From NCBI GenBank assembly GCA_964616645.1, contig CAZTUM010000001.1, forward strand, positions 9,318 through 73,317: a stretch of 64,000 bases of DNA. The letters run 5' to 3'. Under the pieces are notes generated by a model. The model saw nothing but the letters and a program-made list of their open reading frames with translations. It had not been told where the DNA came from and did no database searches. Position numbers and translations under genes: made by a program. Source of the stretch: an uncultured Muribaculaceae bacterium (lineage in GTDB: Bacteria > Bacillota_I > Bacilli_A > RF39 > UBA660). Positions 12,081-41,261 of this stretch are shown here, one piece after another. Each line of letters opens with the position of its first letter. Within the stretch, counting starts at the first letter, position 1.

Positions 12081-12094
12081 GGAGGAATTATATT

Positions 12095-13669: not shown

Positions 13670-14802
13670 AAAATAGGACAATAATAATTTTATCACAGGT
13701 AAATTTTGATGATTCTCCATATACATCATATACTCATTATCATGCTATGGAACTTGTTAAACTTGGTTATAAAGTAATTGTACTTGCTTCTGTTACGATT
13801 AAACCAGGTGCCAATTTAAATAAATATAGTGGAATACATTTTATTAATGGTGTAGAGGTTATTTATTTTAAAAGGCTAGGTTTTTCTAATATTTTATATA
13901 AGAGTAAGATTAATCTTAATGCTATTAGTTATTACATCGGTTGCCATAAAATAATTAAAAATATTTTTGCTAAATATAATGTTGTTTTAATTGATGCACA
14001 TACTTTTAAAGTCCAAGGTGTTGTTGCAAGTTATTTAAAGAAGAAATATGATATTGTTACCATTGTTACCTCACATGGTACTAGTTTAAATAGAAATTTA
14101 CAATTTAAAAATGGAATTAATTCTATTAAAAAGGTATCTAGTATAGTTGATTATATGGTATGTGTAAGTGAAAAAATTGAAAGAGAGCTTTGTAGTTTAG
14201 GCATAATAAATACTAAAGTTATTTATAACGGAGCTATTTCTTATGACAATGATATGGATAATAATAATTATAATATTATATCAGTTGGATATTTTACTAA
14301 AATTAAGAATTTTGATAAGGTAATTATGGCTTTTGCAAAAGTTATAAATATGTTTCCCTCTGCAAGACTTACAATAGTTGGTGATGGGGGAATAAAGAAT
14401 GATTTGATTAAGTTAGCTCAAGATTTAAATGTGGATAAGTATGTTTGTTTTACAGGTGTTTTATCTAATGATAAGGTTAATTATTTATTAGCAAAAAGTA
14501 ATATTTTTGTTTTACCTAGTTCTCCTGAAGGATTTGGAATTACTTATGTTGAGGCTATGAATAATGGATGTATTGTTATAGGTACTAAAAATGAAGGTAT
14601 TGATGGATTTGTTAAAGATAATGTAAATGGTTTTTTAACTAATGTGGATGTTGATGAAATTTATGATAAAATTCTCTATGTTTTTAATAATAATTGTGAT
14701 AAAATTAGAATGACAGGTATAAATGATGCAAGGATGCTTACTTGGGAGAATAATGCAAAAAAATATGTAGAATTGTTAGGTGAGACTAATGAAAAAAAAT
14801 AA
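13666..14802 (+). CDS. Glycosyltransferase family 4 (group 1).
   Basis: C-terminal EGFGITYVEAMNNGCIVIG motif (E-x7-E GT4 signature). Confidence 0.75.
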   Translation: MKNRTIIILSQVNFDDSPYTSYTHYHAMELVKLGYKVIVLASVTIKPGANLNKYSGIHFINGVEVIYFKRLGFSNILYKSKINLNAISYYIGCHKIIKNIFAKYNVVLIDAHTFKVQGVVASYLKKKYDIVTIVTSHGTSLNRNLQFKNGINSIKKVSSIVDYMVCVSEKIERELCSLGIINTKVIYNGAISYDNDMDNNNYNIISVGYFTKIKNFDKVIMAFAKVINMFPSARLTIVGDGGIKNDLIKLAQDLNVDKYVCFTGVLSNDKVNYLLAKSNIFVLPSSPEGFGITYVEAMNNGCIVIGTKNEGIDGFVKDNVNGFLTNVDVDEIYDKILYVFNNNCDKIRMTGINDARMLTWENNAKKYVELLGETNEKK

Positions 14803-21480: not shown

Positions 21481-21485
21481 TATTA

Positions 21486-21525
21486 AAAGGGGCTGTAATG
21501 AAATAAGATAAATTTCATTCAGTTC
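21486..21525. repeat. Left terminal inverted repeat of the IS element.
   Basis: aaaggggctgtaatgaaataagataaatttcattcagttc. Confidence 0.8.
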
Positions 21526-22543
21526 CTTTTTTCTGTTTTTGTTTAACATATGGAAATTTTTCTGCTTTTAAGTTATTTGATTTTTCCCAATATTTTGACT
21601 TTATTTTCTTTTTATCTAATAATGTAAAAAATTTACGAATGTTTATACCAAGACACATCAGCATAAATTCACAAGAAACTTTTTCTAAACCACGTCTTCT
21701 AACTCTTATGTATTGCATATTTTGTTTTAATTGACCGAAGGTTCCTTCTACCTGAATACTTCTATTAATTCTTATTTCTATTCCTTCAGGACTAAGCAAA
21801 TTATTTCTAGCTTGTTCTTTTAATAGTTCATATTCTGGAATTAATTCAATAAATCTATAGTCATTGTCTTTATTTTTTAATTTCTTTTTACAAATATAGG
21901 CATAACTACAATTATTACATCCAATAAACTTATATAACTTACCATCTTTATATCTTTGATGATGACTATAGTTAAAAAATACTTCTTCTCCAATACAAGT
22001 ATTTAAACACATAATTCCATCATCAAAAGTATAAAAAAGTTGAGGATTTTTGCCGCTTGATTCTCCTTGCCATTGTTGAAACTTTATATAATTACCTATA
22101 TTATGTTTTGTTAAATATTTATAGTTATCATATATTCCATATCCTGCATCGGCACAAATATTTTTAGGATATTCATTATAATATTTAAAATACATATCAT
22201 TCATTGAAATAAATGTATGTTGATCATCTCTATTTTGAAATACACCATACATAGTAATTATCCCACTTGATACAAGTACTTGAACATTATATCCAGCATG
22301 AAAGTCATGACTTAATTTAGAATAATAATCTTTTTTTAATACCATTGCTGTTGCATCTATATCAGTTTTATAATATGAGTTTCTATTATTACCACATATT
22401 CTTTCTTTTTCTTCATATTCTAGTAATTTAATTAAATATTCATAAAAAAGTTTATATGTTTTCTGTTCTTTTGTTAATCTTTTTCCTTTTCCACTTGGAA
22501 TAGAATATATATCAATTGAATTATCTGTTACATATTTATTCAA
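21515..22543 (-). pseudogene. C-terminal DDE catalytic part of the IS1182-family transposase. The apparent start is TTG, so it most likely continues from the upstream ORF.
   Basis: DDE region with DAGYGIYDNY and CNNCSYAYIC motifs; its frame is offset by 2 from the 183-aa ORF. Confidence 0.6.
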
Positions 22544-22569
22544 TATTTCATTTAGCTCATAACTTTTTA

Positions 22570-23121
22570 CTAAATCTTTTTTGGTAAATTTAAATTTAAT
22601 TCAAATAATAAATCCTTAATTTTAATATCTAGTTTTTTATGATAAGTAGTTGGTTTCCATACAAATTTATATTTATTTGCATTAGCTACTATTTTTGTTC
22701 CATCTAAATATTGATTAGAAATATCCAAATTAAATTCGTCTTCGATTGACTTAGTTATTAGTGTAAATATTTCATATTGATATGGTAATATATATTTATT
22801 TATACATTCTTTTATAGCATTATGACTAGGTTCTTCTTGGCGCATTAAATACATAACTCGTAAGTCAAATTTACACAAATCTTCTATTTCTCGTAATGAA
22901 CTTCTAAATTGAGAAAAACAATATAAAATAGTTGCAACCAAATTATAAGGATTATATCCATATCTTCCTTTTTTCTTTTTTTCATTTTCTATTATTATTC
23001 CAATTCCACTTTTATTTAAAATTGATATAAATTTGTCAATTTTAGTAAATTCCTCATTACATTTGTTTGAGGATACTAGAAAAAGGAATCTTTTTGTGTT
23101 AAAATATTCCACGTGATACAT
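22570..23121 (-). pseudogene. N-terminal part of the IS1182-family transposase, separated from its C-terminal part by a frameshift.
   Basis: 183 aa in a different frame from the downstream ORF; it ends 27 nt before the downstream ORF begins. Confidence 0.6.
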
Positions 23122-23206
23122 CTTCTTTCGTCAATTAGATTGTATCACAAAAATGGCGTTAGAGGTTAATTCTTCTATCGCTTTTATTATTTTAAATAAA
23201 GAAAAA

Positions 23207-23246
23207 GAACTGAATGAAATTTATTTTATTTCATTACAGCCCCTTT
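23207..23246. repeat. Right terminal inverted repeat of the IS element.
   Basis: gaactgaatgaaatttattttatttcattacagcccctttat, which matches IR-L in reverse complement at 39 of 40 positions. Confidence 0.8.
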
Positions 23247-24843
23247 ATTTATTGTTATTTTTTAAGTAGTTAACATAATCGTGTGCTATTATAGAGACTA
23301 CTGATGTTCTTTTTTTGAAATAATGCTTTAAATAGTCTTTTAGGGATAAGAACCCATATATATTTATATAGTGATGATAATAATTGTTATACATAATTTT
23401 AATTCTATTTAAATTTCTAATTATTATATTTTTACTAACTTTTTTATTTTTACCATATATTTGAGCAATTGGTGCATAATTTAATAACTCTGTGTAATAT
23501 TTTTCTATGTATCTTATATATTGCTTCCTATCTGCTTTTTCTTTATAATTACTATTTTTAAAATATTCCATTAATTCTTTGTCTATATATACTATGTACC
23601 ATTGCATTTTATAATACTCATATATTCTTATGGCATTAGCAATATATTTAGATTCTCTTTCATTTAAATCAAATATTTCTAACATATTGGCTATTTGTTG
23701 TGTACTTATTGGCTCGTCACTTAAATTAGTATTTATACTTTTACTTATTTCTTTTTCAAAGTATTTTTTGGTATTATTATTAAATTTATTAAATCTATAC
23801 GAATGAGTTAGAATGTATTCTTTTAGATTATTTGTTGTGTTATATTCCTCTTTAATCAAGTAGTCGTCACTTATTTCAAGTCCTGCTAAAAAGTCACCTA
23901 AATATCCTGGCGCAACTATACATTCTTGATTTATTATTCCTTTTTTTATTAATTTATCTATTGCAAAATAATCCTGAATTACGGGTATAGCTTTTCCTCT
24001 TCCTAAGTAATCTATAATTTTTTTGTGTTCATTTTTATTATAATACATTTTTTGCATTTCTTTGTGTTTATATTCCACAAAATACAGTGGATATTTTAAA
24101 TATTCTGCAACTTTTTTTGCTGTTTGATATTCTGGATTTTTCTTTTTATTTCCGTATGTATAACATATTACATTGTCATAGTTGTTTTTTCTTAGATGAT
24201 AAGCAATTAATCTTGAATCGTAACCTCCACTTAAAGGTATTACGATTGTACGTTTATTAGCAAATGTTATTAATCTTTTTATTGCATTGTCGTACTTTTT
24301 ATACATTTTTTTAAATATTAATTCTTCTTTTTCGTTTATATTATTTTCACATTTATAAGTAAAATATTTAATTTCTTGAACTTTATTATTATCTGTTATA
24401 ATTGTAATTGTTGATGATGGTACTTGGTACACATTATTATATACTGTTTTATTATTACTACATGTACGTAGTGCTAATAGTTCTTCAATATTGTTTTCGT
24501 TGAATTTTAAATTATTGAAATTGTTAATGTCATCTGTTATTAAGGTATTTTCTTTATTTTTGCTATATAATATTGGAAAGCTTGCAATTATATCTGTTAT
24601 TAAATAATATAAATTATCTTTTTTTATGACTATCGAGAATGCTCCATTTAAATTTTTTACTAATTTAAGTATTTCTTTTTCGTTTTTAGCTTCTTTTACT
24701 AAATTTAATAAGTCTTCTTCTCTTAGTAATTTGTTTTGATAATAAGCATAACCTATAACATAACTATCTTCATCACTATACCATTTGAATGCATTGTTAT
24801 AGTTTAGTTTAATGTTAATATTTTTCATTATTTCAATACCCAA
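23245..24843 (-). CDS. Asparagine-synthase-family PP-loop amidotransferase (second copy). It has no N-terminal Cys2 glutaminase nucleophile.
   Basis: PP-loop IPLSGGYDSRLIAYHL. Its stop codon overlaps the last 2 nt of IR-R. Confidence 0.55.
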   Translation of the reverse strand: MGIEIMKNINIKLNYNNAFKWYSDEDSYVIGYAYYQNKLLREEDLLNLVKEAKNEKEILKLVKNLNGAFSIVIKKDNLYYLITDIIASFPILYSKNKENTLITDDINNFNNLKFNENNIEELLALRTCSNNKTVYNNVYQVPSSTITIITDNNKVQEIKYFTYKCENNINEKEELIFKKMYKKYDNAIKRLITFANKRTIVIPLSGGYDSRLIAYHLRKNNYDNVICYTYGNKKKNPEYQTAKKVAEYLKYPLYFVEYKHKEMQKMYYNKNEHKKIIDYLGRGKAIPVIQDYFAIDKLIKKGIINQECIVAPGYLGDFLAGLEISDDYLIKEEYNTTNNLKEYILTHSYRFNKFNNNTKKYFEKEISKSINTNLSDEPISTQQIANMLEIFDLNERESKYIANAIRIYEYYKMQWYIVYIDKELMEYFKNSNYKEKADRKQYIRYIEKYYTELLNYAPIAQIYGKNKKVSKNIIIRNLNRIKIMYNNYYHHYINIYGFLSLKDYLKHYFKKRTSVVSIIAHDYVNYLKNNNK

Positions 24844-25841
24844 GCATTTGGAATATTTCTTCCTCCTGACCCTTCCTGTGTCGATGGTGTACTTACATAA
24901 TCTCCTTCGGCGTACATAATCGATGAGTTTCCACCATCTAAATTACAAGCATTATAAGCTCCATATCTTAATAATAAATTTGCCATTTGTTTTATACTCA
25001 TACCAACTATTCCGTTTGAATACTGTCTTCCATCGGATACTAGGAATAATACTATTCCATCTTTTCTTTGTGCAATCGCGGTTCTTTGAGCTTTTCCTAA
25101 GCCTCCGTCTCCTTTAAACTGTGCCATTTTACCATTTATTATTAAAAATGGTCCAAACTCTACCGCGTCTACCAGTCCATATCTATCTATAGCCGTTTGA
25201 GGTTCTTCTGTTGTAAGTATTAATATATTATCCTTATTAAATCCTACTATACCTCCGTTTTTACCTCCTACAGCTTCATTATCATAAATTATTTTCCCAT
25301 CCATTATAACTGCTCCTGTTGGAATTTTTGTTCTATTTTTACCATATAGATATCCACTTGCATTTATAGCAATTATTGCATTATTTTCCTCTGCTATTTC
25401 ATCTATTTTTTGTTTACCTTTATTTGATGAAGATACTAACTCTACACGTGATGGGTCATATATTACTGCTAAATAAGCTTTATATCCATCTTCTTCAATA
25501 GTTAATATTTTATATAAGTCATTCCCTTCATCTTTTTTTAATATTTGTTCTTCATAAATAGATGAATACGTTTCTTGTTCTTTAATATTACCTATTTGAA
25601 TAACACTTGTATCAATTTCGTTTGTTAAGCCAATTATACCGTTTCTTTTTAAAACATTTTCTATCATATTATCAGTATAAAATGTTCTAGCTATATATTT
25701 ATGAGTCATCGTGGACATCGCATTAGTAACTAAGAAATCTTTTACAAAAGTAAATGGCCCATAGAACAAAAATAATGTTATTATGGCTAATGTATCTATT
25801 ATCATAAATGTAATTACCCATTTTTTAGTTTTTCTTTTCAT
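24828..25841 (-). CDS. Membrane-anchored phosphodiester glycosidase family protein (NAGPA 'uncovering enzyme'-like, DUF2233).
   Basis: N-terminal TM helix; C-terminal RTAIAQRKDG...LFLVSDGRQ...NACNLDGGNSS, characteristic of the phosphodiester glycosidase family. Confidence 0.6.
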   Translation of the reverse strand: MKRKTKKWVITFMIIDTLAIITLFLFYGPFTFVKDFLVTNAMSTMTHKYIARTFYTDNMIENVLKRNGIIGLTNEIDTSVIQIGNIKEQETYSSIYEEQILKKDEGNDLYKILTIEEDGYKAYLAVIYDPSRVELVSSSNKGKQKIDEIAEENNAIIAINASGYLYGKNRTKIPTGAVIMDGKIIYDNEAVGGKNGGIVGFNKDNILILTTEEPQTAIDRYGLVDAVEFGPFLIINGKMAQFKGDGGLGKAQRTAIAQRKDGIVLFLVSDGRQYSNGIVGMSIKQMANLLLRYGAYNACNLDGGNSSIMYAEGDYVSTPSTQEGSGGRNIPNAWVLK

Positions 25842-25843
25842 GT

Positions 25844-27229
25844 TTACCTCCCAATTATATATGGACTATCATTTGTTCCTTCACCTGATAGTGCAATTAG
25901 ATTACCATCTAAATATATTACTGGTCTTATTTTTTTTGTATCGTTTATTTTTGATGCATATAAATTATTATTTTCTTCTATTACGTATAATATATTATTC
26001 ATATGGTCTTCTATTCCCAGTGATGTTAAGATATTGCTATGTGTATTTATGTATAAGTCTCCTATTTGGGGTAGACCAATGTATGTTTCAATTTTATTAT
26101 TATATATTAATCTATAATCATATGTATCTGTTTTATATTTACCTATATAGAATGGCCCTTTAACTAAGTATTCTTTATTTTCTAAGATATTGTAATAGTC
26201 ATTATTTAAATAATAAGCTATACTATCTTTATCTTTTATATCAAAAGTATTATTTTTTTTAGAAAAAATACTTTCTTTATCTATATCATCTTCTTCTATA
26301 TAGTCTTCTAATATCACTTTAACTGATGTATCTTGTTTAGAAATAATTCTCCATATTTTATTACTATATTCTACATATTCTCCCACACCAACATTAATTA
26401 GTTTGTAATCTTTATATTCATCTATTAAATAAGGATTTTCTATAGTGCCATCTCCAGATGTTAATAATAATTCTCCATCTATTGTTATTACTGGTCTTAT
26501 ACCATAGTGATTAGTATTATATTTTTCTGTTTTATTTATACCTCCTTTATCGAATACGTAATATAATTTATTAGTATTATCAAAATCCATTAACCAAAAA
26601 TACTCATTAATATTTAGGTATCCCTCATTAGCACCTGAGTTTAAATAGTCATTTAGACTTAGTAAAGTTAGTTTATATTCACTATTTTTAGTATTACATG
26701 TAATATTATCTATTTCTTCTATTTTATCTTCACAATAAATAGTATTTTTTAGGACTTCTTTATTATTTAAAGTATTATAAAATATTGAATAGGTATCTAT
26801 ATCATTTAAATAATTATTAATATATGATGTTTTATAGTTTGCTTCTTCACCATATGGGAGTAATGTTTGTATTTCTTCTGTTATTAATGTAATATTATTA
26901 TTTTCATCTATTTTTACTATTCTCCATAATCTACCAGAATAATGGATATAGTTATTAGTAACTTGTCCTTTAAAATAATATTCATTTGTTAATTCATTTT
27001 TAACTAAAGGGCTTGTTATCCCACTTAACTTATCTTCTTCGCTTGTTAAATATGTTAATAGATGATTATATATAGATATTGGTTCTGATATTTGGGTATT
27101 GTTATCTGTGTTTTTATGTTCTAATCTATAATAATGTATAAATCTATATCCATATATAATAAATAGTATGATGATAAATAAGATACTTGTATATATAAAT
27201 ATTTTGTCTTGTTTTATTTTCTTTCTCAT
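25844..27229 (-). CDS. Membrane-anchored extracytoplasmic protein with an internal duplication; function unknown.
   Basis: A single N-terminal TM helix. Two repeat units each end in IRPVI(T/Y)(I/L)DG(E/N)L(L/I)..SG(D/E)GT...(N/S)PY(L/I)I. Confidence 0.45.
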   Translation of the reverse strand: MRKKIKQDKIFIYTSILFIIILFIIYGYRFIHYYRLEHKNTDNNTQISEPISIYNHLLTYLTSEEDKLSGITSPLVKNELTNEYYFKGQVTNNYIHYSGRLWRIVKIDENNNITLITEEIQTLLPYGEEANYKTSYINNYLNDIDTYSIFYNTLNNKEVLKNTIYCEDKIEEIDNITCNTKNSEYKLTLLSLNDYLNSGANEGYLNINEYFWLMDFDNTNKLYYVFDKGGINKTEKYNTNHYGIRPVITIDGELLLTSGDGTIENPYLIDEYKDYKLINVGVGEYVEYSNKIWRIISKQDTSVKVILEDYIEEDDIDKESIFSKKNNTFDIKDKDSIAYYLNNDYYNILENKEYLVKGPFYIGKYKTDTYDYRLIYNNKIETYIGLPQIGDLYINTHSNILTSLGIEDHMNNILYVIEENNNLYASKINDTKKIRPVIYLDGNLIALSGEGTNDSPYIIGR

Positions 27230-27243
27230 TTTACACCTACTTA

Positions 27244-27915
27244 CTAAGCTCCAAAGTCATTTTGATAGCTAATTATACTGGTACTAATAATTCCATTCAT
27301 ATCTTTAAATTTATCTAATATATCTGTTTTTTCTTCTTTTATTTCTATTTCAAATGTTATTTCTGCTGTATCTTTGGTAATAGATTTACTTTTTAATTTA
27401 TGTTTAGGTAACCTTTTAATTTTTTCCATTACTTGTTTATCAATATCTACTTGATACTTTATAATAAATAGATATTTTGTTTCTTTTTTAAAACCTATTG
27501 AATATGTTATAAAATACAATAGCCCTAAAGCTACTGTTGCCACTAGGGCTACCAAATATAGTCCTGCACCTGACATTATACCTATTGTTATAGACCAAAA
27601 CATAAATGCAGTGTCTACTGGTTCTTTTACAGCTGTCCTAAAGCGAACGATTGATAAGGCTCCTACCATACCTAGTGATAATGAAAGGTTAGAATTGATT
27701 GTCCTTATTATTAATGCAGTAATCATACCTAATAGCATTAGGCATAATGCAAATGATTTTGAATATACAACTCCATTAAATGTTTTTTTGTATACATATA
27801 TAATGAATAAACCTAAGATAAACGCAGTTATTAAAGATAGAGATACATCTACTACACTTATTTTCCCAGTAAATTCATTTAATACACTTTTTTTAATTAT
27901 ATCTGTAATTCCCAT
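27244..27915 (-). CDS. DUF4956-family integral membrane protein.
   Basis: Multi-pass membrane N-terminal half plus a soluble C-terminal domain; occurs in the CotH/VTC context typical of this family. Confidence 0.55.
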   Translation of the reverse strand: MGITDIIKKSVLNEFTGKISVVDVSLSLITAFILGLFIIYVYKKTFNGVVYSKSFALCLMLLGMITALIIRTINSNLSLSLGMVGALSIVRFRTAVKEPVDTAFMFWSITIGIMSGAGLYLVALVATVALGLLYFITYSIGFKKETKYLFIIKYQVDIDKQVMEKIKRLPKHKLKSKSITKDTAEITFEIEIKEEKTDILDKFKDMNGIISTSIISYQNDFGA

Positions 27916-27928
27916 AATAAATACTCCT

Positions 27929-28609
27929 TTATTTTAAATTTCTACAGGTAGCAAATTTTGAATATGCTTCCCTATTTAGTGATACAGTTGATAATATAAT
28001 CGCGATTGGCTCTGGTAGTATCTCGTTATATTTAACTTCTAAAATTAGATAATTATCATCAATAACACTTGTATATGTACTATCATTATCAAATAAACAA
28101 TAATTATATACACCTGATTTTATTTGTTCATCAAATGTTATTCTTACTTCTGATATTGGATAGGTATATGCTAGTCTTTTATAGTCCACTATTACGGATG
28201 GAGAAAGATGTTTAACTTTCATATCTATAATAAATTTTTTTAAGATGTTATCTTTAGTTATATCTATATCATCTATATTACCACTTAATATTTTACTACA
28301 AATTTCTTTACTTAGCAAGACTGATTCTTTACTGGTCATATTATTATGTTTATATTTACATTCTAGTTTAATAAAGTTATCTTGCAGATTGTATATTCTA
28401 ATACGATATTTTTTTCTATATAGAACTCCATCTTGTTTTTCATGATAAGCAGTGCTGTTTAAATCATCAAAGTATAAGCTTCTTATTAAATAGGTGTTAT
28501 CTTCATTATATGAATTTTTATCTATATCAAGTAATAAAGATAATTTTTGTTTTAATATTTGTGCTGTTTGTTTACTAATTAAATATTTAATTTCATGTCT
28601 ATATTTCAT
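27929..28609 (-). CDS. VTC-domain (polyphosphate-polymerase-like, triphosphate-tunnel fold) protein.
   Basis: N-terminus MKYRHEIKYLISKQTAQIL...IRSLYFDD matches the conserved start of bacterial VTC-domain proteins. Confidence 0.6.
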   Translation of the reverse strand: MKYRHEIKYLISKQTAQILKQKLSLLLDIDKNSYNEDNTYLIRSLYFDDLNSTAYHEKQDGVLYRKKYRIRIYNLQDNFIKLECKYKHNNMTSKESVLLSKEICSKILSGNIDDIDITKDNILKKFIIDMKVKHLSPSVIVDYKRLAYTYPISEVRITFDEQIKSGVYNYCLFDNDSTYTSVIDDNYLILEVKYNEILPEPIAIILSTVSLNREAYSKFATCRNLK

Positions 28610-31482
28610 AATAAATCACCAAAGTATTCTTGCATTTGTGCATCTGTTAAGTTAAAGAATGATTTAGTTTGTTTAAGCATAATTGGTGTCCTTTTTTTTA
28701 CATAGTTTTTTAATCTTTCTACATTAGATATCCAATTATCATAACTTATATTCCATCTTTCACAGTTGCGAGGCATTTCTTTTTTATATATTTCATATAA
28801 TTCTTCTATTTTATTTAATAATTTTTCTTCTGTCCATATATTATTTAAATTATAAGATAGTCTTTCTACATATCTTGTTTTAAATTCTTCGTTTTTCATT
28901 AAGTTTCTTAGTAGAGTTGTTGGTACTTTTAGTCTACTCATTGGAGTTGTACTTGTTGAAAATTGATAATAGTTTTTAGTTACATTAAACATTGCCCAGT
29001 CTAAATCATAAAATATTGCTCGTAGTTTCCCATCAGATACATCTGGGTGTGAATAAAATCTGGCATTAACTATATCATTGTTTGTAGTATATGTTTCTGC
29101 AATCCAGAAATCTATTAAACTGTCTATATCAATTTTTGTTTTTATATATTCATAATTCTTTGTATCAGACATATTGTGAGTGCTAGTATAATTTACAATA
29201 TCTTTATACCAAGTGGTACTTCCACATGTGACATTATAATCTATTCTTGTTATATTTACATTTTCTTTATCTACATTATAATGATTAGATATAAATTCTG
29301 ATTCTATTTTTTCTCTAATATTATATATTCCCCAGTATTCTCCATTAATATATAGAATAATTGTTTTATATGCTTGAACATCTACAGTATCTAAATCTTC
29401 TAGGGTTGAGGTCATAAATATATCAGAAAAAGCTGCATATTCATAGTCAGTTGAAGCACTTCTTATAACTAATGTGTTAAATGATGAGAAGTCACGATTA
29501 TCAAAAACTTGATAGTTTAATTTACTTGCTCCATATTTACTTCTAAATTTTAGTTTAAAGCTTTTTTTAGGTAGTCCTCTGGTAGTACCTCCAAATAATT
29601 GAAATCCACATGAAATGTTAAAACTCCCATCTTCCTCAAAAAGCTCTGCATTCGCAGGTACTTCTAAGTCATTATCCCAAGAGGAATTATGTACTTTGTT
29701 AAAATCGCTTTTGTTTAATGATATGGACATTACTGGTACTGTATGATTTTCATTTATTATATAAGAGGATGTTTTTATTTCACTAGGAAGTTTATCTTCT
29801 TCATAACTTATTGCTTTTAATACTGTTGTCTTTGTAAGAAAAAGAGGACTTGTATATTTTTTAGATGTTTTATTTGGATTACTACCATCTAATGTATAAT
29901 ATATTGTCCCATTTCCTGTTAATTCTACACTAATTTGTTCAACATTATTATATATACCTGGAGTAACGCTCACTTCTGGAGCGTATGCTATTGAATTTAC
30001 TCCTTTTGCATTATTTTTCTTAGGAGTTGGAGTAGAAAAATAACATATTCCTTTATCTTCACATTTGCCTATACTATAATCTAATGGTACATTTGATACA
30101 AATATTGAATCTATTATTTTATTTTCTTTTACTAGATATATACTTTCTATTTCAGATATTTTAAAATTTGTATGGTTATAAGTGTTATTTGATAGATTAG
30201 TATCTCCTGATGCCATTAAGATATAATATTCTCCTGGTTTTAGATTGACATCTGGTAAATTATACATATCTTTTATACTTTCTTTGGTAGTTAGATAATA
30301 ATTTTTTAAATTTATTGTACTTTTACTAGTGTTTTTTATCTCTATCCAGTCATAATAACTGCCTCCGTTTTGAGGTAAATAGGAATTATTTTCATTCATA
30401 ACTTCGTTTATAACTAAATCATTATTAGTATTATTTATAGTTTCGTTATATTTTTTTATTCCTGTTTTATCGTTTGCATATCCTGGAGTAATATTACTTC
30501 CTTGATAGAAGGTATCATTTTCTTTTATATAAGCAAATCCATTAGGTAAATCTTCATATTCTATTATATCTACTATTTTGTTTTTGTTTGATAGTATTAC
30601 TTGACCTTTCTTTTCTAACAATTTAAATGATGTGTAGTTATCTTGACTACTATTTGTACCTGTATAAAAGAGGTATATTTCTCCTTTTTTTAAAGATATA
30701 TCTGGCAAATTATATTTATATGGTGTATTAATATCGTTAGATAAACTATATGTTTTTAAATTAACTGTATCATTAGAAGTATTAATAATTTCAATATATC
30801 CTGGGAAATCTCCTTCTTCGGTCATAAAATTACCTTTATTTCTTGGTAATATTTCATTAATTTTTATTGTATTTTCTTCTTCATATAAACTATTTATATA
30901 TTCATTACTACCTTCTTGGGTATTAGGATATCCAGGTGTTGGGGTTTTAGAAGTATATAGATTACCATTTAAATCTCTTGCTATTGTTTCGTTTTTATCA
31001 AGTGGTGTTACATCAATTGCATCTAGTACTTTGCCATTTGATTTCGTAAGTACTATAGTTTCTCCTCCGTTGGAACTTAATTTAAAGTTTGCATATAATC
31101 CTTCTTTATTTTCTCCTGTTAAATATACTATTAGGTATGATTTAGATTTAATTGTAGTGTCAGGGAACAACCATTTAATTTTGGTTTCATCATCAGACAA
31201 ACCATAGTTTTTTAAGTTTATATCATGACTAGAACCATTATATAGTTCTATCCAATCATATAAATTACCTTCTTTATCTGCATATGCACCTTTATTTGAA
31301 GACATCACTTCATTTATTATAAGTTTGTCAATATTTGGTTCTCCAGATGATGCATTTTCTTTTTCTTCTAACTTTTTACTTGTATTTTTATCTGCTAAAA
31401 TTCCTATAGTTATACCTAGTATTACTAATATTAGACATATTATAATAAATTTTCTATTTTGGTATAAAAATTTTCTATTCAT
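28606..31482 (-). CDS. cotH: CotH-family atypical kinase with an N-terminal signal anchor and three lamin-tail domains (LTDs).
   Basis: Three LTD-like repeats (DWIELYNGSSHDINLKNYGLSD, GYIEIINTSNDTVNLKTYSLSND, DWIEIKNTSKSTINLKNYYLTT), and a C-terminal CotH domain with FYSHPDVSDGKLRAIFYDLDWAMF. Confidence 0.8.
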   Translation of the reverse strand: MNRKFLYQNRKFIIICLILVILGITIGILADKNTSKKLEEKENASSGEPNIDKLIINEVMSSNKGAYADKEGNLYDWIELYNGSSHDINLKNYGLSDDETKIKWLFPDTTIKSKSYLIVYLTGENKEGLYANFKLSSNGGETIVLTKSNGKVLDAIDVTPLDKNETIARDLNGNLYTSKTPTPGYPNTQEGSNEYINSLYEEENTIKINEILPRNKGNFMTEEGDFPGYIEIINTSNDTVNLKTYSLSNDINTPYKYNLPDISLKKGEIYLFYTGTNSSQDNYTSFKLLEKKGQVILSNKNKIVDIIEYEDLPNGFAYIKENDTFYQGSNITPGYANDKTGIKKYNETINNTNNDLVINEVMNENNSYLPQNGGSYYDWIEIKNTSKSTINLKNYYLTTKESIKDMYNLPDVNLKPGEYYILMASGDTNLSNNTYNHTNFKISEIESIYLVKENKIIDSIFVSNVPLDYSIGKCEDKGICYFSTPTPKKNNAKGVNSIAYAPEVSVTPGIYNNVEQISVELTGNGTIYYTLDGSNPNKTSKKYTSPLFLTKTTVLKAISYEEDKLPSEIKTSSYIINENHTVPVMSISLNKSDFNKVHNSSWDNDLEVPANAELFEEDGSFNISCGFQLFGGTTRGLPKKSFKLKFRSKYGASKLNYQVFDNRDFSSFNTLVIRSASTDYEYAAFSDIFMTSTLEDLDTVDVQAYKTIILYINGEYWGIYNIREKIESEFISNHYNVDKENVNITRIDYNVTCGSTTWYKDIVNYTSTHNMSDTKNYEYIKTKIDIDSLIDFWIAETYTTNNDIVNARFYSHPDVSDGKLRAIFYDLDWAMFNVTKNYYQFSTSTTPMSRLKVPTTLLRNLMKNEEFKTRYVERLSYNLNNIWTEEKLLNKIEELYEIYKKEMPRNCERWNISYDNWISNVERLKNYVKKRTPIMLKQTKSFFNLTDAQMQEYFGDLL

Positions 31483-31565
31483 AGGGTACTCCTTTAACTT
31501 TTTATTCTTACTTTATTATGGTACCATAATATGTCATTTTTTTCAAGGTTAATATATGGCATTTC

Positions 31566-31604
31566 AGTAAAAAAGACTAAAGTAATTTTTTTATACTCAA
31601 GTCT
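31566..31604 (-). terminator. Imperfect hairpin terminator (possibly bidirectional) separating the T7SS-locus genes from the cotH operon.
   Basis: agactaaagta ... tactcaagtct (9 of 11 bp pair), flanked by an A-run and a T-run. Confidence 0.4.
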
Positions 31605-31616
31605 TTTTTTCTTAAT

Positions 31617-31988
31617 TTAACTATTTTGTGATAGTGGAAGTTCTAAATCATTAATTACACTATTTTCAGTATTTGTATTAGGTGATGAAGTTGATATTGC
31701 TGATGTATTTTCAATTTTTTCATTTACTATATTGGTTAAATGAGTTATAAAATCATTTTGCTCTTCGTCCATCAAACCATAGTAAAACAGTTTATCTATG
31801 TCACTATGATTAAATAACATAGCGGTTTTGGAATCCATTACTCCCTCTGGAAATAAACATCCACTGTAGTCATAAGTTATTTCGTTACCATTAGCTAAAA
31901 CAGTTGGATAATATCCTATAACCATCACTCTTTTATTTGCCTCTTTTAACAAAACTACTGACCCAATTGATAATAATTTTTTATTCAT
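31617..31988 (-). CDS. DUF4176-family protein (associated with T7SSb loci).
   Basis: Paralogous to ORF 32443-32763 (LGSVVLLK..KR.M.G....Y.GCL.PEG....). Confidence 0.55.
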   Translation of the reverse strand: MNKKLLSIGSVVLLKEANKRVMVIGYYPTVLANGNEITYDYSGCLFPEGVMDSKTAMLFNHSDIDKLFYYGLMDEEQNDFITHLTNIVNEKIENTSAISTSSPNTNTENSVINDLELPLSQNS

Positions 31989-32004
31989 TTTACTAAAATC
32001 CTTT

Positions 32005-32421
32005 CTATCTTGTTTTATTCTTACTCATTTGTGCTATTTCTGTTTCTAAATTATAATCTATTTTATTTACATCTTTATTATCTATAATCCATTGTTTCCA
32101 AAATTCAAATCTTTTTAAATCAAAATTAAATAATAAATTTGAAGATAAATTATTCAATACTTTCGTTGCTAGTGGATAAATTAATCTGTTTTTCTCTACT
32201 AATTTTTTCATTACGTTAGGAGTCATATATATGCCAAATGGTGGCTCATCATCCGAAAAATATGGACAAGCTACATAAACTCTTTCTCCAAAACTCAATA
32301 TTGAAAAATCTAATGAACTATATATTTCTCTTACCATTTCTTGGTCAAAATATGGCTGCATTTTTTGATAAAATTTTTTCTTGTCTGACTCTTTTTGTTG
32401 ATAAAATAATTCTTTATTCAT
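32005..32421 (-). CDS. Hypothetical cytoplasmic protein, a candidate immunity protein.
   Basis: 138 aa, no TM helix, nested between two DUF4176 genes downstream of the putative effector. Confidence 0.35.
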   Translation of the reverse strand: MNKELFYQQKESDKKKFYQKMQPYFDQEMVREIYSSLDFSILSFGERVYVACPYFSDDEPPFGIYMTPNVMKKLVEKNRLIYPLATKVLNNLSSNLLFNFDLKRFEFWKQWIIDNKDVNKIDYNLETEIAQMSKNKTR

Positions 32422-32442
32422 TTTTTTCTCTCCTTTAATCTA

Positions 32443-32763
32443 TTAATTTTGTGTGTTATTTTGGCTATTTTTATTTAACATACTATCTAAAAAATTTATA
32501 TATCTTTTGTGTTCATCATCACAATATCCTATAGCATATATTGTACTTATATCTTTATGATCAAATAACAAATTTTTATCTGAGGATTGTATACCTTCTG
32601 GATAAAGGCATCCTATATAATCCCATATTTTGTCTTGATTTTCATTAGCCTTAATTGCAAAACCAGTAATCATAATCCTTTTTTTTGCATTTTTAATCAA
32701 AACCACACTCCCTAAGGGTAAGTATTTTTTATATTTATCATTCATATTTATTTTCCCTTTCAT
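32443..32763 (-). CDS. DUF4176-family protein (associated with T7SSb loci).
   Basis: PLGSVVLIKNAKKRIMITGF...IGCLYPEGI pattern. Confidence 0.55.
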   Translation of the reverse strand: MKGKINMNDKYKKYLPLGSVVLIKNAKKRIMITGFAIKANENQDKIWDYIGCLYPEGIQSSDKNLLFDHKDISTIYAIGYCDDEHKRYINFLDSMLNKNSQNNTQN

Positions 32764-32874
32764 TTACTATCTTAATATTAACACCCTGGATTAATTATAT
32801 TAAATTATATATGTTTTGAATTATCCAGTCCATATTATATTAATATTTTTATAAAATTGTATTTAATTAAAGAT

Positions 32875-34851
32875 TTAATTATCTTCATAAATAATTTCAT
32901 CATATGCCCATTCTATTGCTTTACTACTAACTTTAGTTGCATATTTGTTAACGATACCACTATCAAGTATGTCGATAAGCACGTTAGATTCATGCTTTGT
33001 AGCCATCGTTATGTTCACCGTAGTTGCTGATTCATAAGTTGCGGACCCTATGTCTTCGGATAGCTTATCCATTCCCAGTTCTTCCATCATTTGCTTTGTT
33101 TCATTTGTATCTAATTGCATTTCTTCTGTTTTCGCTATATTTGTTTTTACTTGTTCTGTTGCTTTATCTACTAGAGGATTAACGATAGTTGTATTAACTG
33201 TTGTAACAACCCCAGCTTTAATAGCTTCTGATGTTGCAGCACTAAAATCAAATTCACCATCCAATGATATACTAGCATATTCTTTTAAATATTCCTTACC
33301 CATTGATGTTCCTACTTTAGTAACTAAGCCTGATGTTCTTGGACTGCTTATACCCAATCTATTATCAATTGCATCGGAAAGAGCTTTTGAGCCTTCGCCG
33401 TATGTTAAATATGTAGCTCCAACCTCTATTGCACCTAATGCCATTCCATAGCTAGATGCTGTATCAAAATCATATCCTTTATTAAGTGCTCCTTCAGTCC
33501 CTTTGCCAATAGCTCTTAATCCATTTGTCGCGCATTTCATCGCTACTCCACCTGGCAAATATAATATTGCAATTGTTCCTGTTGTTTCTCCTATCCATTC
33601 ACCCACTGAATGCCAATTAGAATATGCAGATACACTATTTAAATGTGCTGATGCTATTAAATCATAAGTTTCTTCTGCATAATTTACTGACACAAAATCT
33701 TCTGCCCATGTAGCAGTAGGTATGAAGGGCCTATCTAATAATCTTCCTAATACCGTTACTATACCGTCAGTTATTTCTTCAAATATGTGCAAAACACCAC
33801 AACCAGTACTAGCTCCCAAAGTTTTTGTATTTTCTACGATCTTTGAGAAAGTGTTCATATTATACCAATTTATTTCATCTTCTGTTGCAATACCCATTTT
33901 CATTTTTTGATTTATTATTTTTTCTTCTACGTCTTTTGCGGAAGTGTGAATATCATACATTTCAATGTCTTTCTCTGTTGCATTACCCAATTTTATGTCA
34001 ATTTCTATTTTCGGCCAATTACAGTTAAGTTCTTTATCTTGCTCTTGTATTATATATAATTTATTTAATGTTATATTATCTTTTAAATCGTTTAATCGTT
34101 CTTTTTCTTCATTTGTTAAATTACCTTTAAAGTTATAGTAATCAATTTCATACTCTAATAATTGGTTTTCTTCCACATAATAGGAATATGTTCCTGGAGT
34201 TTTATCAGATAAAATACTTCTTTGAGTCATTATGCTTAGCTGTATTGATGTATATTTATCTATTTGCTTTATTTGTTCAGCCTTTTCATCATCTGTTAAA
34301 TTAGTAGATAAATTTATTAAATTTTTTTCACATTTTGCTTTTTTTTCTAAATCTTGCCTCTTAAAATGATAATCTCCATTTGATTTATATGTTGCCATTC
34401 TATCTTCTATACGATACAATTCTGCTAAATTCCTTCGGACTTCTAATTCTTGTTTCATCTCATCATTTAACATCCCTGATTTTTCATATTTTTCTAACAT
34501 ATCCATGAGAATTTGGTTGTATTCTCTAGCATACGCATCCATTTGAATACTATATTGCATTTTTTCTGCTTCTGTCATATTAGTATCAATTGTTGAATTT
34601 TCTGTAAATTCTTGCAATAATGTCATATATTCACTAGAAAATTTTTCATTTTCCATTAGGCTTGATTTAGCTGCATCAACTTTAGTTATTAAATCTTTTA
34701 TGTCATTGTAACACTTATAAATTAATTCATTTATACCATCTTCTGATGCTAAATTTTCCGCTACTTCCCCTATACATCTATGTATTAACGTATTAGCACA
34801 AGAAAGCTTATTATAAGCACTGAGGAATAGTCTTGCTTCAGTTTTAAACAT
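32875..34851 (-). CDS. Putative T7SS substrate or effector. The N-terminal half is helical and LXG-like; the C-terminal region is Gly/Ala/Thr-rich.
   Basis: 658 aa, with no signal peptide. It sits downstream of WXG-like and small helper genes. The C-terminus is compositionally distinct, with a run of GxxxG-like spacings. Confidence 0.4.
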   Translation of the reverse strand: MFKTEARLFLSAYNKLSCANTLIHRCIGEVAENLASEDGINELIYKCYNDIKDLITKVDAAKSSLMENEKFSSEYMTLLQEFTENSTIDTNMTEAEKMQYSIQMDAYAREYNQILMDMLEKYEKSGMLNDEMKQELEVRRNLAELYRIEDRMATYKSNGDYHFKRQDLEKKAKCEKNLINLSTNLTDDEKAEQIKQIDKYTSIQLSIMTQRSILSDKTPGTYSYYVEENQLLEYEIDYYNFKGNLTNEEKERLNDLKDNITLNKLYIIQEQDKELNCNWPKIEIDIKLGNATEKDIEMYDIHTSAKDVEEKIINQKMKMGIATEDEINWYNMNTFSKIVENTKTLGASTGCGVLHIFEEITDGIVTVLGRLLDRPFIPTATWAEDFVSVNYAEETYDLIASAHLNSVSAYSNWHSVGEWIGETTGTIAILYLPGGVAMKCATNGLRAIGKGTEGALNKGYDFDTASSYGMALGAIEVGATYLTYGEGSKALSDAIDNRLGISSPRTSGLVTKVGTSMGKEYLKEYASISLDGEFDFSAATSEAIKAGVVTTVNTTIVNPLVDKATEQVKTNIAKTEEMQLDTNETKQMMEELGMDKLSEDIGSATYESATTVNITMATKHESNVLIDILDSGIVNKYATKVSSKAIEWAYDEIIYEDN

Positions 34852-34868
34852 AATGTTAACTCCTTTTT

Positions 34869-35198
34869 TTAAAATCTAATCCTAATTAAGGAAGATATTT
34901 TTTCAGTGCGGATTCTATTTTGTAATTTTGATATTTTTTCATTATAACTGTTAATCTTATTAGATGCGATATCAATAAAATTATCTGTGGATGTTGCACA
35001 TTTGTTAAATAGCCCCGCCTGAAGAGGAACATCATTTAAAACATGCCCACCATTTTTAAAATCTAATTTTGCTTCGTTTAAATATGACTGACATTCTTTT
35101 ATTTTTGAAATTAAATTATTAAGATAATTTATTTTTGTATTGTAATCTGAAATTTTTTTTTCTAATCGTGCTACTTCTGCTTCAGTTAGTTTGTCCAT
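34869..35198 (-). CDS. Small coiled-coil helper protein (YwqH/DUF5082-like, Lap-like targeting factor).
   Basis: 109 aa with a predicted helical hairpin, immediately upstream of the large putative effector. Confidence 0.35.
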   Translation of the reverse strand: MDKLTEAEVARLEKKISDYNTKINYLNNLISKIKECQSYLNEAKLDFKNGGHVLNDVPLQAGLFNKCATSTDNFIDIASNKINSYNEKISKLQNRIRTEKISSLIRIRF

Positions 35199-35260
35199 AA
35201 ATATTCCTCCACTTAATTCTAAAACAAGATGATATTTAAATCATCTTGTTAAAATAAACA

Positions 35261-35875
35261 CTATAATAATTGTTTTTTATTTTCAGCAACTATATTTAAA
35301 TTATCTCTAACTTTAGTTATTTGGCTCTTATAATCAGCTACATTATTATTGAAATTTTCAAATGTTGATATTACTTCTGCTCTATTAGAACCATCTAACC
35401 AATTATTTAGTAAATTATTTTTTGATTCATTTAATGTATTTACAAAATTTTCAAATGTTGTTGGAAAATTTGTAAATGCTTCTGCATCCGCTATTATTGC
35501 TGGATCAGTCCAACTTTCTACAGTTTCAGTAGGTACAGCTATAACTGAATCAACATTAAGTGTTACTGCTAATTCATTCCCAATTGTACAAGTTCCTCCA
35601 CTTGCTACAATATGTTTTTGTAATGGAAGTACTTCGTTGTTATTAACACTAACTATAATTTTTTGTAAATTTTTAACTAAGTCTGTTACTGCAGTATATA
35701 CTTTAGATAAATCAGTTAAATTTGCAACTGCGTCAGACCCTTTCCAATGACTTTTTAAGTTTTCTATAGTTTGAGAAAAACTAGTAATTAAATCTTTCCC
35801 TGTTGTATTTGTTACATTAAACATTTCTTCTGCTTGAGTTCCAACTGTATTTGGATTTACGCAATGTATTGCCAT
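35261..35875 (-). CDS. Tandem WXG100-like protein (two fused EsxA-like helical hairpins).
   Basis: HWKGSD (W-x-G) at about residue 43, and a second W-containing turn, NWLDGSN, at about residue 150. There is no signal peptide, and the gene is adjacent to EssC. Confidence 0.5.
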   Translation of the reverse strand: MAIHCVNPNTVGTQAEEMFNVTNTTGKDLITSFSQTIENLKSHWKGSDAVANLTDLSKVYTAVTDLVKNLQKIIVSVNNNEVLPLQKHIVASGGTCTIGNELAVTLNVDSVIAVPTETVESWTDPAIIADAEAFTNFPTTFENFVNTLNESKNNLLNNWLDGSNRAEVISTFENFNNNVADYKSQITKVRDNLNIVAENKKQLL

Positions 35876-36021
35876 AGTTAACCACTCTCCCTTACTCTAT
35901 ATGACAATTTTTATGAAACACCATTTTGGAGTATCATTATCTTAATTATAATACACCAAGTTGGTGTTCGTCAAGACAAAATTATGCTAAAAGTGATATT
36001 TTTGTCTTGGGTGATTAAATT

Positions 36022-36252
36022 ATGATTGGAAAAACTTTAAAATATATGCGTGTTAAAAAAGGATTAAATCAAAAAGAATTAGGAAAATTAATAAATTTAA
36101 ATCAACAAAGTTTATCTAGGTATGAAAAAAATCAAAGGATTATCTCCTTTGATATGATAGAAAAAATAGCAAACAGCTGTGGGTACCAAATATATTTTGA
36201 AAATGATAATGAAAGATTTCAAATAAAAGATATTGAAAGAAAAATTGATTGA
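36022..36252 (+). CDS. XRE-family helix-turn-helix transcriptional regulator.
   Basis: LKYMRVKKGLNQKELGKLINLNQQSLSRYEKNQR is a classic Cro/C1 HTH. Confidence 0.7.
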   Translation: MIGKTLKYMRVKKGLNQKELGKLINLNQQSLSRYEKNQRIISFDMIEKIANSCGYQIYFENDNERFQIKDIERKID

Positions 36253-36292
36253 TTAATAATAAATCCAAAAATATTTTATTACCTATTTATAA

Positions 36293-40900: not shown

Positions 40901-40908
40901 ACTATCAC

Positions 40909-41163
40909 CTATACTAAAGCCAAAAGTGTACCATTTTTTATTCCAGAATTTATTATTTCAACATTATAATCATAAAATACACCCTCAATAACATTCAACA
41001 AAGATAATTTATTATTTATCGCAAAACATCCTGTCATTTCATTTATTGCTTTATTTAAAATAACAATAACTTCTCCTACTGTTTTGTTAACTGGTATAAA
41101 TATATTATATTGTTTACCAACACTTGGAACAATTAATTCAACATTAACTTTATTCCCTTTCAT
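40909..41163 (-). CDS. esaB: EsaB/YukD ubiquitin-like T7SS protein.
   Basis: 84 aa, beta-grasp-like; C-terminus GIKNGTLLALV resembles YukD; immediately upstream of essC. Confidence 0.7.
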   Translation of the reverse strand: MKGNKVNVELIVPSVGKQYNIFIPVNKTVGEVIVILNKAINEMTGCFAINNKLSLLNVIEGVFYDYNVEIINSGIKNGTLLALV

Positions 41164-41261
41164 ATAATCACTCTACCTTATGATAATAGTATATTATAAA
41201 TATTTTAATTTTGCAATAACGAATGTAAGAAAAATAAATAATAAATTAGCTAACTTTTAAT

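Follow-up and report, generated by a model that had tools for sequence, protein, structure and literature searches.

Pel operons of Gram-positive bacteria are known to carry, as an accessory set, genes for a CotH-family kinase, a VTC-domain protein and a DUF4956 membrane protein (10.1101/768473 / PMC7112168; PMC12345266, the latter with knockouts of mild phenotype). Here we describe a version of this trio in a 64,000-nucleotide stretch of DNA (the window; contig CAZTUM010000001.1 of assembly GCA_964616645.1) from an uncultured bacterium, where it forms the first half of a block of six genes on the minus strand. CotH, VTC and DUF4956 are an evolutionarily tight unit. New here is that the trio is frequent outside pel loci and that it recurs with a phosphodiester glycosidase of the NAGPA family. 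The version in the window is autonomous, has a long kinase bearing lamin-tail domains (LTDs), and carries a DUF6273-like protein and NAGPA in place of the DUF4832 hydrolase. An earlier note on the window had stated that the trio has no assigned function. This is true, and our literature search found no biochemical study of the bacterial trio proteins; the trio itself, however, had already been published, from pel operons and from the NELoc-2 locus.

In Streptococcus intermedius the pel-associated cluster is cotH-PPP(VTC)-DUF4956-DUF4832 (SIR_1594-1591). It has in common with the window that genes of the three families adjoin each other in one orientation and encode an exported kinase, a cytoplasmic VTC protein and a membrane protein of 4-5 transmembrane (TM) helices with an ACT-like domain. 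While the fourth gene of the pel cluster encodes an extracellular glycosidase (DUF4832), the same slot in the window is taken by the DUF6273-like protein and NAGPA. The window CotH has 958 residues and three LTDs, compared with about 570-600 residues and FN3 in the pel CotH. The window genes are also not contiguous with pelDEA(DA)FG, the adjoining locus being of the Wzx/Wzy type. Deletion of the CotH and DUF4956 homologues of S. intermedius alters the level of Pel exopolysaccharide and aggregation (PMC12345266).

Another example is NELoc-2 of Clostridium perfringens, which contains two VTC genes, two genes for 'tubulin/FtsZ-like' membrane proteins, a CotH gene, a chitin-synthase-like glycosyltransferase and a deacetylase (PMC2879425, PMC11677781). 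Each of the VTC proteins (230-232 residues) is followed by a cytoplasmic-membrane protein of 222-226 residues, and from their size and localisation we infer that these membrane proteins are DUF4956. As in the window, CotH is in the locus and a polysaccharide synthase is associated. NELoc-2 differs from the window in having no NAGPA or DUF6273-like gene, a shorter CotH (497 residues) and a strain-variable distribution.

The third system of reference is the yeast VTC complex (PMC9911596). Its catalytic domain is homologous to the window VTC protein, which has equivalents of K200, R264, R266 and E426, and the entrance of its channel carries a basic ring. The window VTC protein is likewise coupled, in this case genetically, to a membrane protein with a conserved basic cluster placed by prediction at the cytoplasmic face. 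Unlike in yeast, this partner is the MgtC-like DUF4956 and not a three-helix subunit of the Vtc1 type. The putative product of the window enzyme would leave the cell, while that of the yeast enzyme enters the vacuole.

The kinase, the VTC protein and the membrane protein

The trio is encoded in the window as follows.

28606..31482, minus strand: surface-anchored CotH-family kinase, 958 residues (Pfam, hydropathy)
30073..31329, minus strand: three lamin-tail domain repeats of the kinase, about residues 52-470, predicted extracellular (PF00932)
28687..29598, minus strand: CotH kinase domain, residues 629-932 (PF08757, 135 bits against a cut-off of 23.8, E 5e-39)
27929..28609, minus strand: stand-alone cytoplasmic VTC/TTM domain protein, 226 residues (PF09359)
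27244..27915, minus strand: DUF4956 membrane protein, 223 residues (PF16316, 45.8 bits against 30.6, E 7e-12)

The CotH protein consists of a signal anchor (residues 12-30), the three LTDs, a CHB_HEX_C_1/Fn3_assoc region (507-574) and the CotH domain (629-932). PF00932 matches it in three stretches (E 1.8e-39), and the limits of the repeats were read off the sequence. The same architecture of LTD, CHB_HEX_C and CotH is found in two distant loci, L090 and L115. Single-sequence searches of the VTC and CotH proteins against solved structures gave nothing useful and profiles were needed; the CotH profile matches B. cereus CotH (5jd9) at E 1.6e-9. In this alignment D803 and D826, which are 23 residues apart, fall on the Asp pair of 5jd9 that corresponds to D228 and D251 of B. 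subtilis CotH, so that the comparison with B. cereus CotH proposed in the earlier note finds the catalytic pair present. Mutation of D228 or D251 inactivates the B. subtilis enzyme (PMC7821199). Six residues of the window kinase (D803, N806, D826, D828, K639 and K640) are at least 97% conserved among 84 homologues.

The spore CotH, as in B. subtilis and B. cereus, is an enzyme of the mother-cell cytoplasm with CotB and CotG as substrates. It has the atypical kinase fold and the catalytic Asp pair in common with the window CotH, but it is a single-domain protein of about 360 residues with neither a signal anchor nor a VTC or DUF4956 partner, whereas the window CotH is anchored and multidomain. 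The window CotH is a member of the fold family and not an orthologue of the spore protein. It is very improbable that the window kinase phosphorylates coat proteins during sporulation and that its neighbours are coat or cortex accessories. The family is named for a spore-coat kinase (PMC7821199), and in a subclade of relatives a Spo0A gene is near the module. However, the window CotH is membrane-anchored and has wall- or glycan-binding domains, and the trio is also found in non-sporulating streptococci and bifidobacteria (10.1101/768473). The module exists inside a gap-pgk operon in a subclade, and there is no adjacent gene for a CotB/CotG-like Ser-rich substrate. On these grounds we rejected a spore-coat function.

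The start of the VTC gene overlaps the stop of the CotH gene (ATGA). Residues 4-222 of its product correspond to positions 2-230 of the 235 positions of PF09359 (124 bits against a cut-off of 23, E 7e-36), and the VTC profile matches the catalytic domain of Vtc4 (3g3q) at E 6.9e-11. On 3g3q (chain offset 185), K8 corresponds to K200, R69 and R71 to R264 and R266, and E191 to E426. These four residues are invariant in diverse homologues. The equivalence of E191 and E426 comes from a weak second alignment segment together with this invariance, a profile of only the C-terminal part did not reach Vtc4, and we infer that K218 corresponds to K458. The yeast R264A/R266A/E426N Vtc4 is catalytically impaired (PMC9911596). 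Identification of the domain as the Vtc4 catalytic fold, as proposed earlier, thus agrees with the Pfam match, the match to 3g3q and the retained K/R/R/E set, and the catalytic residues of both CotH and VTC, whose loss would have spoken against the earlier proposal, are intact.

The TTM superfamily includes triphosphatases and cyclases. The VTC-domain protein might be one of these, a triphosphatase or a nucleotide cyclase, and together with DUF4956 signal to or activate the secretion or modification of a polymer, with CotH modifying the polymer or its synthase. The breadth of the superfamily is consistent with such a role, as is the lack of the SPX and transmembrane parts of Vtc4; the window protein has no SPX, no fused transmembrane domain, no other domain and no hydrophobic segment. 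It is also consistent with the attachment of the trio to different polymer systems, including pel and the glycosyltransferase and deacetylase of NELoc-2 (PMC2879425; PMC11677781). We nevertheless consider it improbable, as the best structure and Pfam matches are to the Vtc4 polymerase domain with K/R/R/E kept, and no cyclase or CYTH family scored on the protein.

The DUF4956 protein has 4-5 hydrophobic segments by hydropathy. In its AlphaFold2 model (pLDDT 68), five helices are followed by a C-terminal beta-alpha-beta-beta-alpha-beta (ACT-like) domain, for which the best matches, all weak, are the C-terminal domains of MgtC (7qa5/2lqj) and ACT domains. The MgtC/SapB/YhiD family likewise has about five TM helices and a small ACT-like cytoplasmic domain. 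DUF4956, however, is a separate Pfam family with its own signature, and the NCBIfam MgtC/SapB model gives it 26.4 bits, far under the cut-off of 214. As modelled, the likeness to MgtC/SapB is one of architecture only. The signature of the family is GMVGALSIVR91-F-R93-x-A-x-K97-E-P-x-D101, in which positions R91, R93 and K97 are basic in 100% of 116 representatives. We predict this basic cluster to be on the cytoplasmic face. The earlier note had compared DUF4956 with the transmembrane channel of the VTC complex; DUF4956 is MgtC-like and not homologous to the Vtc1-type channel, and the analogous channel is therefore conjectural.

Conservation of the trio

A scan with the VTC profile, taking one genome per species, gave 80 genomes of the window's clade with VTC identities of 51-82%. 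All of them are uncultured gut assemblies ('Bacilli/Tenericutes/Mollicutes/Clostridium sp. CAG'). CotH (about 950-980 residues), VTC and DUF4956 exist in the same order wherever the contig allows. After the trio, the 461-residue DUF6273-like protein and NAGPA are found in 45 genomes, NAGPA alone in 9 and neither in 12, and in 9 the region is cut by a contig end. The composition of the module is constant while its context shifts (rpsR and a polysaccharide locus here, a gap-glmS...pgk-tpi operon in a subclade, other sites elsewhere); relatives at 67% identity have the trio alone, at another site. The earlier note had placed the block next to a wall-polysaccharide locus, but this proximity is not conserved, the module being found elsewhere in the gap-pgk operon, in pel loci or beside two-component systems.

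Chance does not account for the block. A relative is collinear with it at about 80% nucleotide identity, and genes 1-5 are found again in other species-level genomes of the clade. That six unrelated genes have been juxtaposed by accident is hardly credible. The sixth gene is a lineage-specific addition, and promoter and terminator scans are uninformative in such AT-rich DNA, which would leave room for an accident. Against this, the first five genes exist together in 45 species-level genomes and the first three in very distant lineages, and these conservation data refute chance juxtaposition of genes 1-5.

A metagenome scan seeded on a distant VTC protein gave 80 more loci, of 22-68% GC, with VTC proteins 42-67% identical to that query. 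The hidden Markov model of the clade CotH missed divergent CotH proteins (L089), and Pfam scans and phmmer seeds were added. CotH is found within 2.5 kb of VTC in all 26 distant loci that have at least 4 kb on both sides, and DUF4956 adjoins VTC in 25 of them. The order of the three genes is permuted across the distant loci. VTC-DUF4956 pairs with CotH in other orders are also found around diverse DUF4956 representatives. The recurrence claimed in the earlier note is therefore borne out, in 80 clade genomes and 80 distant loci.

The pel-type architecture (PelG, DUF2194, CotH, VTC, DUF4956, DUF4832) is present in only 13-16 of the 80 distant loci, and some distant trios adjoin two-component systems. 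No homologue of PelG, DUF2194 or DUF4832 was found in the window or in the 80 related genomes (L007-L086), and no pel gene within 10 kb in either. It was reported that the synteny was not found outside pel loci (PMC12345266); this statement does not hold. Two loci of a second distant lineage (L115, 3827-7054; L133, 11466-13438) have the trio together with NAGPA and a GT2-GtrA fusion of the polyprenyl-phosphate-sugar-synthase type. L115, though not L133, also has a DUF368 undecaprenyl-phosphate-translocase-like gene. The contents of these loci point to lipid-linked sugar-phosphate chemistry.

Some variants of the module were seen in these scans. In one subclade (L053, L046, L031, L040, L081, L068, L078; e.g., L068 5185-6987 and L053 14364-15512) the five-gene module is inside a glycolytic operon, in the order whiA ... 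gap, glmS, [module], small P-loop kinase, pgk, tpi, gpmI. In 27 clade loci (e.g., L071, 16962-17726) the pgk-tpi-gpmI region, a few kb downstream of the module, contains a gene for a response regulator of the Spo0A type, which hints that these uncultured Bacilli may sporulate. In L084 (4552-14310) the DUF6273-like/NAGPA pair is divergent and upstream of the trio, and a second full-length CotH paralogue (11422-14310) exists directly downstream of DUF4956. In L093 a gene for a GGDEF/HD-domain signalling protein adjoins a VTC-DUF4956 pair. Unusually long open reading frames (ORFs) encode a 665-residue protein with a DUF4956 match that clusters with DUF4832 proteins (L163, 1187-3184), a VTC protein of 462 residues (L153, 2133-3521) and a VTC protein of 360 residues with a 136-residue N-terminal extension (L115, 1993-3075); these may be fusions or start-codon artefacts.

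The lectin-like protein and the phosphodiester glycosidase

Two genes follow the trio in the window.

25844..27229, minus strand: surface-anchored 461-residue protein, with an N-terminal TM helix and two tandem beta-rich DUF6273-like (C-type-lectin-like) domains
24828..25841, minus strand: surface-anchored NAGPA-family phosphodiester glycosidase, 337 residues (PF09992, 140.9 bits against 25, E 6e-41)

The 461-residue protein has no Pfam family at E <= 0.01, and homologues at 33-39% identity carry PF19789 (DUF6273) in precomputed assignments. Its AlphaFold2 model (pLDDT 86) consists of the anchor and two tandem beta-rich domains. The sole significant match in the PDB is the IgA peptidase of T. 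ramosa (9qa6, E 4e-7; the aligned part is not reported), the N-terminal domain of which has been described as C-type-lectin-like (PMC12237041). The alignment of homologues contains no invariant acidic or histidine residues. The protein is therefore probably, as far as the alignment tells, a binding or scaffold protein.

The NAGPA protein matches solved uncovering enzymes (6pku/6pky) at about E 5e-7, and its R328 is invariant. The loop at 24915-24929 (residues 302-306) reads D302-G-G-N-S306, where the form of the family is DGGGS. Among 54 aligned NAGPA homologues of the clade, 50 have DGGGS and 4, including that of the window, have DGGNS. The DGGGS loop has been reported to be strictly invariant, its catalytic Asp being D286 of the human enzyme (PMC13474241). 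The window protein keeps the catalytic Asp and has Asn at the equivalent of G289, whose backbone contacts phosphate.

A homologous phosphodiester glycosidase domain acts in the eukaryotic mannose-6-phosphate pathway, which consists of GlcNAc-1-phosphotransferase and the uncovering enzyme, and the Asp of its DGGGS loop is kept here (PMC13474241). Both glycosidases act in a compartment without cytosolic ATP. Unlike the eukaryotic pathway, the window cluster has no Stealth/GNPT homologue, and its loop is DGGNS.

In loci that have NAGPA after the trio but lack the DUF6273-like gene (L013 11501-12811, L015 11519-12916, L025 11578-12933 and others), most of the NAGPA proteins carry a Lys/Glu-rich extension of tens to about 130 residues ahead of the membrane anchor.

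Topology and possible function of the module

By hydropathy, CotH, the 461-residue protein and NAGPA have N-terminal hydrophobic anchors, and the VTC protein and the sixth product, a PP-loop protein, have none. The earlier note called the block an extracytoplasmic operon. This is apt for the three surface-anchored products; of the others, one is polytopic and two are cytoplasmic. In the trio-bearing loci, an N-terminal hydrophobic segment is found in 51 of 53 complete trio-associated CotH ORFs compared with 1 of 83 VTC proteins. As predicted from these segments, the topology is constant across lineages: the VTC enzyme inside, the polytopic protein in the membrane, the CotH kinase outside. No other observation argues as strongly for the trio acting across the membrane and not side by side. 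The earlier suggestion of surface phosphorylation, a polyphosphate system or the processing of phosphodiester-linked glycans is reasonable, and is supported by this topology and by NAGPA rejoining the trio in a distant lineage.

We propose that the genes may encode a trans-envelope phosphate module, in which polyphosphate is made inside, passed outward and feeds a surface kinase acting on an envelope polymer; we put this at somewhat less than an even chance. Like Vtc4, the VTC protein would use ATP to build a phosphate chain on the cytoplasmic side of the membrane. The MgtC-like DUF4956, as an oligomer, would take the chain at its strictly conserved basic R-x-R-x3-K face and pass the chain or its phosphoryl groups outward. 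The CotH kinase, which its LTD and CHB_HEX_C domains would keep attached to the wall, would use this exported supply in an ATP-poor compartment and phosphorylate an envelope polymer, glycan or protein. The lectin-like 461-residue protein may bind the phosphorylated polymer, and NAGPA may trim its sugar-1-phosphate diesters, by which phosphate-linked sugars would be uncovered or taken off. The AsnB-like sixth gene would be a local add-on for the adjacent Wzx/Wzy polysaccharide locus. We counted the invariant basic cluster of DUF4956 for export, as it resembles the entrance ring of the yeast VTC channel, and the extracellular glycosidase (DUF4832) as the fourth gene of pel loci for a module of this kind, together with the altered exopolysaccharide and aggregation of the S. 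intermedius CotH and DUF4956 deletions.

Several points weigh against this proposal. DUF4956 shares no homology with the Vtc1/3/4 channel; MgtC, the relative that has been characterised, regulates and does not transport; and the DUF4956 model is of only moderate confidence (pLDDT 68). No VTC-DUF4956 fusion was found among the best 150 diverse DUF4956 representatives, of which the longer ones have N-terminal extensions or an unrelated citrate-synthase fusion. Neither is the association without exception: in L093 (1329-4687) a beta-helix protein of the Cthe_2159 family takes the place of CotH after the VTC-DUF4956 pair, and in the contexts of the diverse representatives some DUF4956-like genes are solitary. 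The window NAGPA departs from an otherwise invariant DGGGS loop. Finally, no biochemical evidence was found for polyphosphate synthesis by bacterial VTC, conduction by DUF4956 or use of polyphosphate by CotH, and in the VTC knockout of S. intermedius, unlike those of CotH and DUF4956, neither aggregation nor Pel signal differed significantly (PMC12345266).

The main alternative is that the three genes are co-regulated and their products not mechanically coupled across the membrane. The VTC polyphosphate (or triphosphate hydrolysis) would then stay inside, DUF4956 would be a membrane regulator like MgtC or would sense phosphate or energy status by means of its ACT-like domain, and CotH would independently use ambient extracellular ATP on surface or host proteins. 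We regard this as rather unlikely. It is in agreement with the resemblance of DUF4956 to MgtC/SapB and its ACT-like C-terminal domain, with the lack of any fusion or structural sign of docking, and with the position of some trios beside two-component systems. The authors of PMC12345266 also suggest that polyphosphate may stay cytoplasmic, tying the three proteins to phosphate metabolism. It does not account, however, for the strict linkage of a TTM enzyme in the cytoplasm with a kinase that is exported, from 22% to 68% GC and in permuted gene orders, nor for the invariance of the basic cluster of DUF4956; extracellular ATP would also be scarce for a constitutively encoded surface kinase.

A trans-envelope phosphate module could take a more specific form, that of a minimal bacterial VTC-like machine. 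A stand-alone polymerase of the Vtc4 type would dock on a DUF4956 pore and thread polyphosphate out, and this polyphosphate would serve as donor or grafted polymer for an exported CotH acting on wall glycans or matrix polysaccharides. Such a machine is unlikely as things stand. If true, it would be a general answer to phosphorylation in an extracytoplasmic space without ATP and would add to PPK1 and PPK2 a third way for bacteria to make polyphosphate, and 'uncovering' enzymes of the NAGPA type would represent a second, sugar-phosphate-based route in the same module.

Polyphosphate of bacteria is attributed to PPK1 and PPK2, and synthesis of the VTC type is treated as eukaryotic. The survey of the VTC domain in PMC10657179 covered only eukaryotes. 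With a Vtc4-like enzyme inside, a membrane protein mid-way and a kinase outside, the module makes both VTC-type synthesis in bacteria and the donor supply of exported kinases directly testable. The arrangement spans 22% to 68% GC and both gut commensals and pathogens (pel of S. intermedius, NELoc-2 of C. perfringens). Rather than being an accessory specific to pel, the trio is autonomous and joins different envelope polymers, with a separate glycosidase for each, and this changes the interpretation of the published pel knockouts. In the gut-Bacilli clade the module is often found in a core glycolytic operon, suggesting a constitutive envelope function in these abundant uncultured gut organisms.

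The sixth gene and the limits of the block

Six consecutive minus-strand ORFs span 23245-31482 of the window, which has a GC content of about 25%. The earlier note had listed six minus-strand genes with these domain assignments, and the ORF list, Pfam and hydropathy agree with it. The gaps between successive genes are -4, +13, +14 and +2 nucleotides, and the last is -16 when the sixth ORF is taken as 23245-24843 with its TTG start. The features at this end and at the limits of the block are as follows.

23245..24828, minus strand: cytoplasmic PP-loop ATP-pyrophosphatase of the AsnB superfamily, about 526 residues (weak Asn_synthase/QueC/NAD_synthase matches)
23203..23246, minus strand: terminator-like hairpin and U-rich tract at the end of the block (-16.8 kcal/mol, z -3.6)
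31518..31546, minus strand: candidate sigma-70-type promoter (TTGAAA, 17 nucleotides, TACCAT, with TG ahead of the -10)
31566..31612, minus strand: terminator-like hairpin after the upstream DUF4176 gene (-14.6 kcal/mol, z -3.6)

The likelier start of the PP-loop gene is an ATG at 24828, which overlaps the NAGPA stop as TAATG and gives a protein of about 526 residues, the length called in relatives. With the asparagine synthetase model asn_synth_AEB (TIGR01536) the protein reaches 40.5 bits, the cut-off being 267. The protein begins with MKNINIK and lacks Cys2, the N-terminal nucleophile of asparagine synthetase B; the PP-loop motif SGGYDS is present (as PLSGGYDSRL). Only L001-L003, the closest three loci, contain the gene, and it is missing in L007 (82% VTC identity). 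An initial view that the last three genes are limited to close relatives was overturned by the 80-genome scan, and the limit holds for the sixth gene only. While the earlier note took all six genes as the unit, the conserved unit has at most five, the AsnB-like gene being present in relatives with 87% VTC identity and missing at 82%.

A second AsnB-like gene (12095-13669, 524 residues) is inside the polysaccharide locus. It has no Pfam match and a weak match to asn_synth_AEB. Its product is very divergent, the PP-loop region alone being common with the sixth gene. Because a second AsnB-like gene is inside that locus, we assigned the sixth gene to polysaccharide chemistry and not to the module; it is probably a lineage-specific addition serving the adjacent Wzx/Wzy locus.

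At the other end, the block had been drawn to 31616 as the start of the CotH gene. This was wrong: the gene starts with an ATG at 31482 behind an AAGGAG site, and 31483-31616 is intergenic. The candidate promoter is in a 75-bp upstream stretch common to the window and its relative L001. Promoter-like matches in this AT-rich region number 82 compared with 78.8 expected from shuffles, making the candidate weak evidence. At 25% GC the consensus scans for promoters and terminators were uninformative, and folding of the flanks was more useful. The hairpin at 31566-31612 is the upstream boundary of the block and is inside a window-specific type VII secretion insertion. For the hairpin at the block end (23203-23246), 0 of 200 shuffles fold as well. 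The genes thus form one tight co-oriented block with a hairpin at either end, in keeping with the single operon proposed earlier.

Genomic surroundings

To the left of the block, on the plus strand, is a Wzx/Wzy-type polysaccharide locus with genes for WbpB/E/D-like enzymes, a UDP-sugar dehydrogenase, GT4 transferases, a Wzy-like protein, a flippase and a 2-epimerase. To the right is a type VII secretion island (EssC, WXG100 and DUF4176 genes), beyond which are ssb and ychF. A defence-system reading of the region was dropped, PADLOC giving no match except a PP-loop/QueC echo.

The window is collinear with the metagenomic relative L001 (87% VTC identity) at 78-86% nucleotide identity, except for two window-specific insertions. 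One is the secretion island itself, of about 9.7 kb (31558-41281), which exists between rpsR and the promoter region of cotH and is missing from L001; collinearity picks up again at 31557. Its genes include the following.

31617-31988 and 32443-32763: two DUF4176 genes
32875-34851: 658-residue protein, no family
35261-35875: WXG100-like gene
36293-40900: EssC

The other insertion, also missing in L001, is an insertion sequence element (21483-23243) between the UDP-GlcNAc 2-epimerase gene and the PP-loop gene. Its transposase is split into two parts.

22570-23121: DUF772 part of the transposase
21515-22543: DDE_Tnp_1_6 part of the transposase

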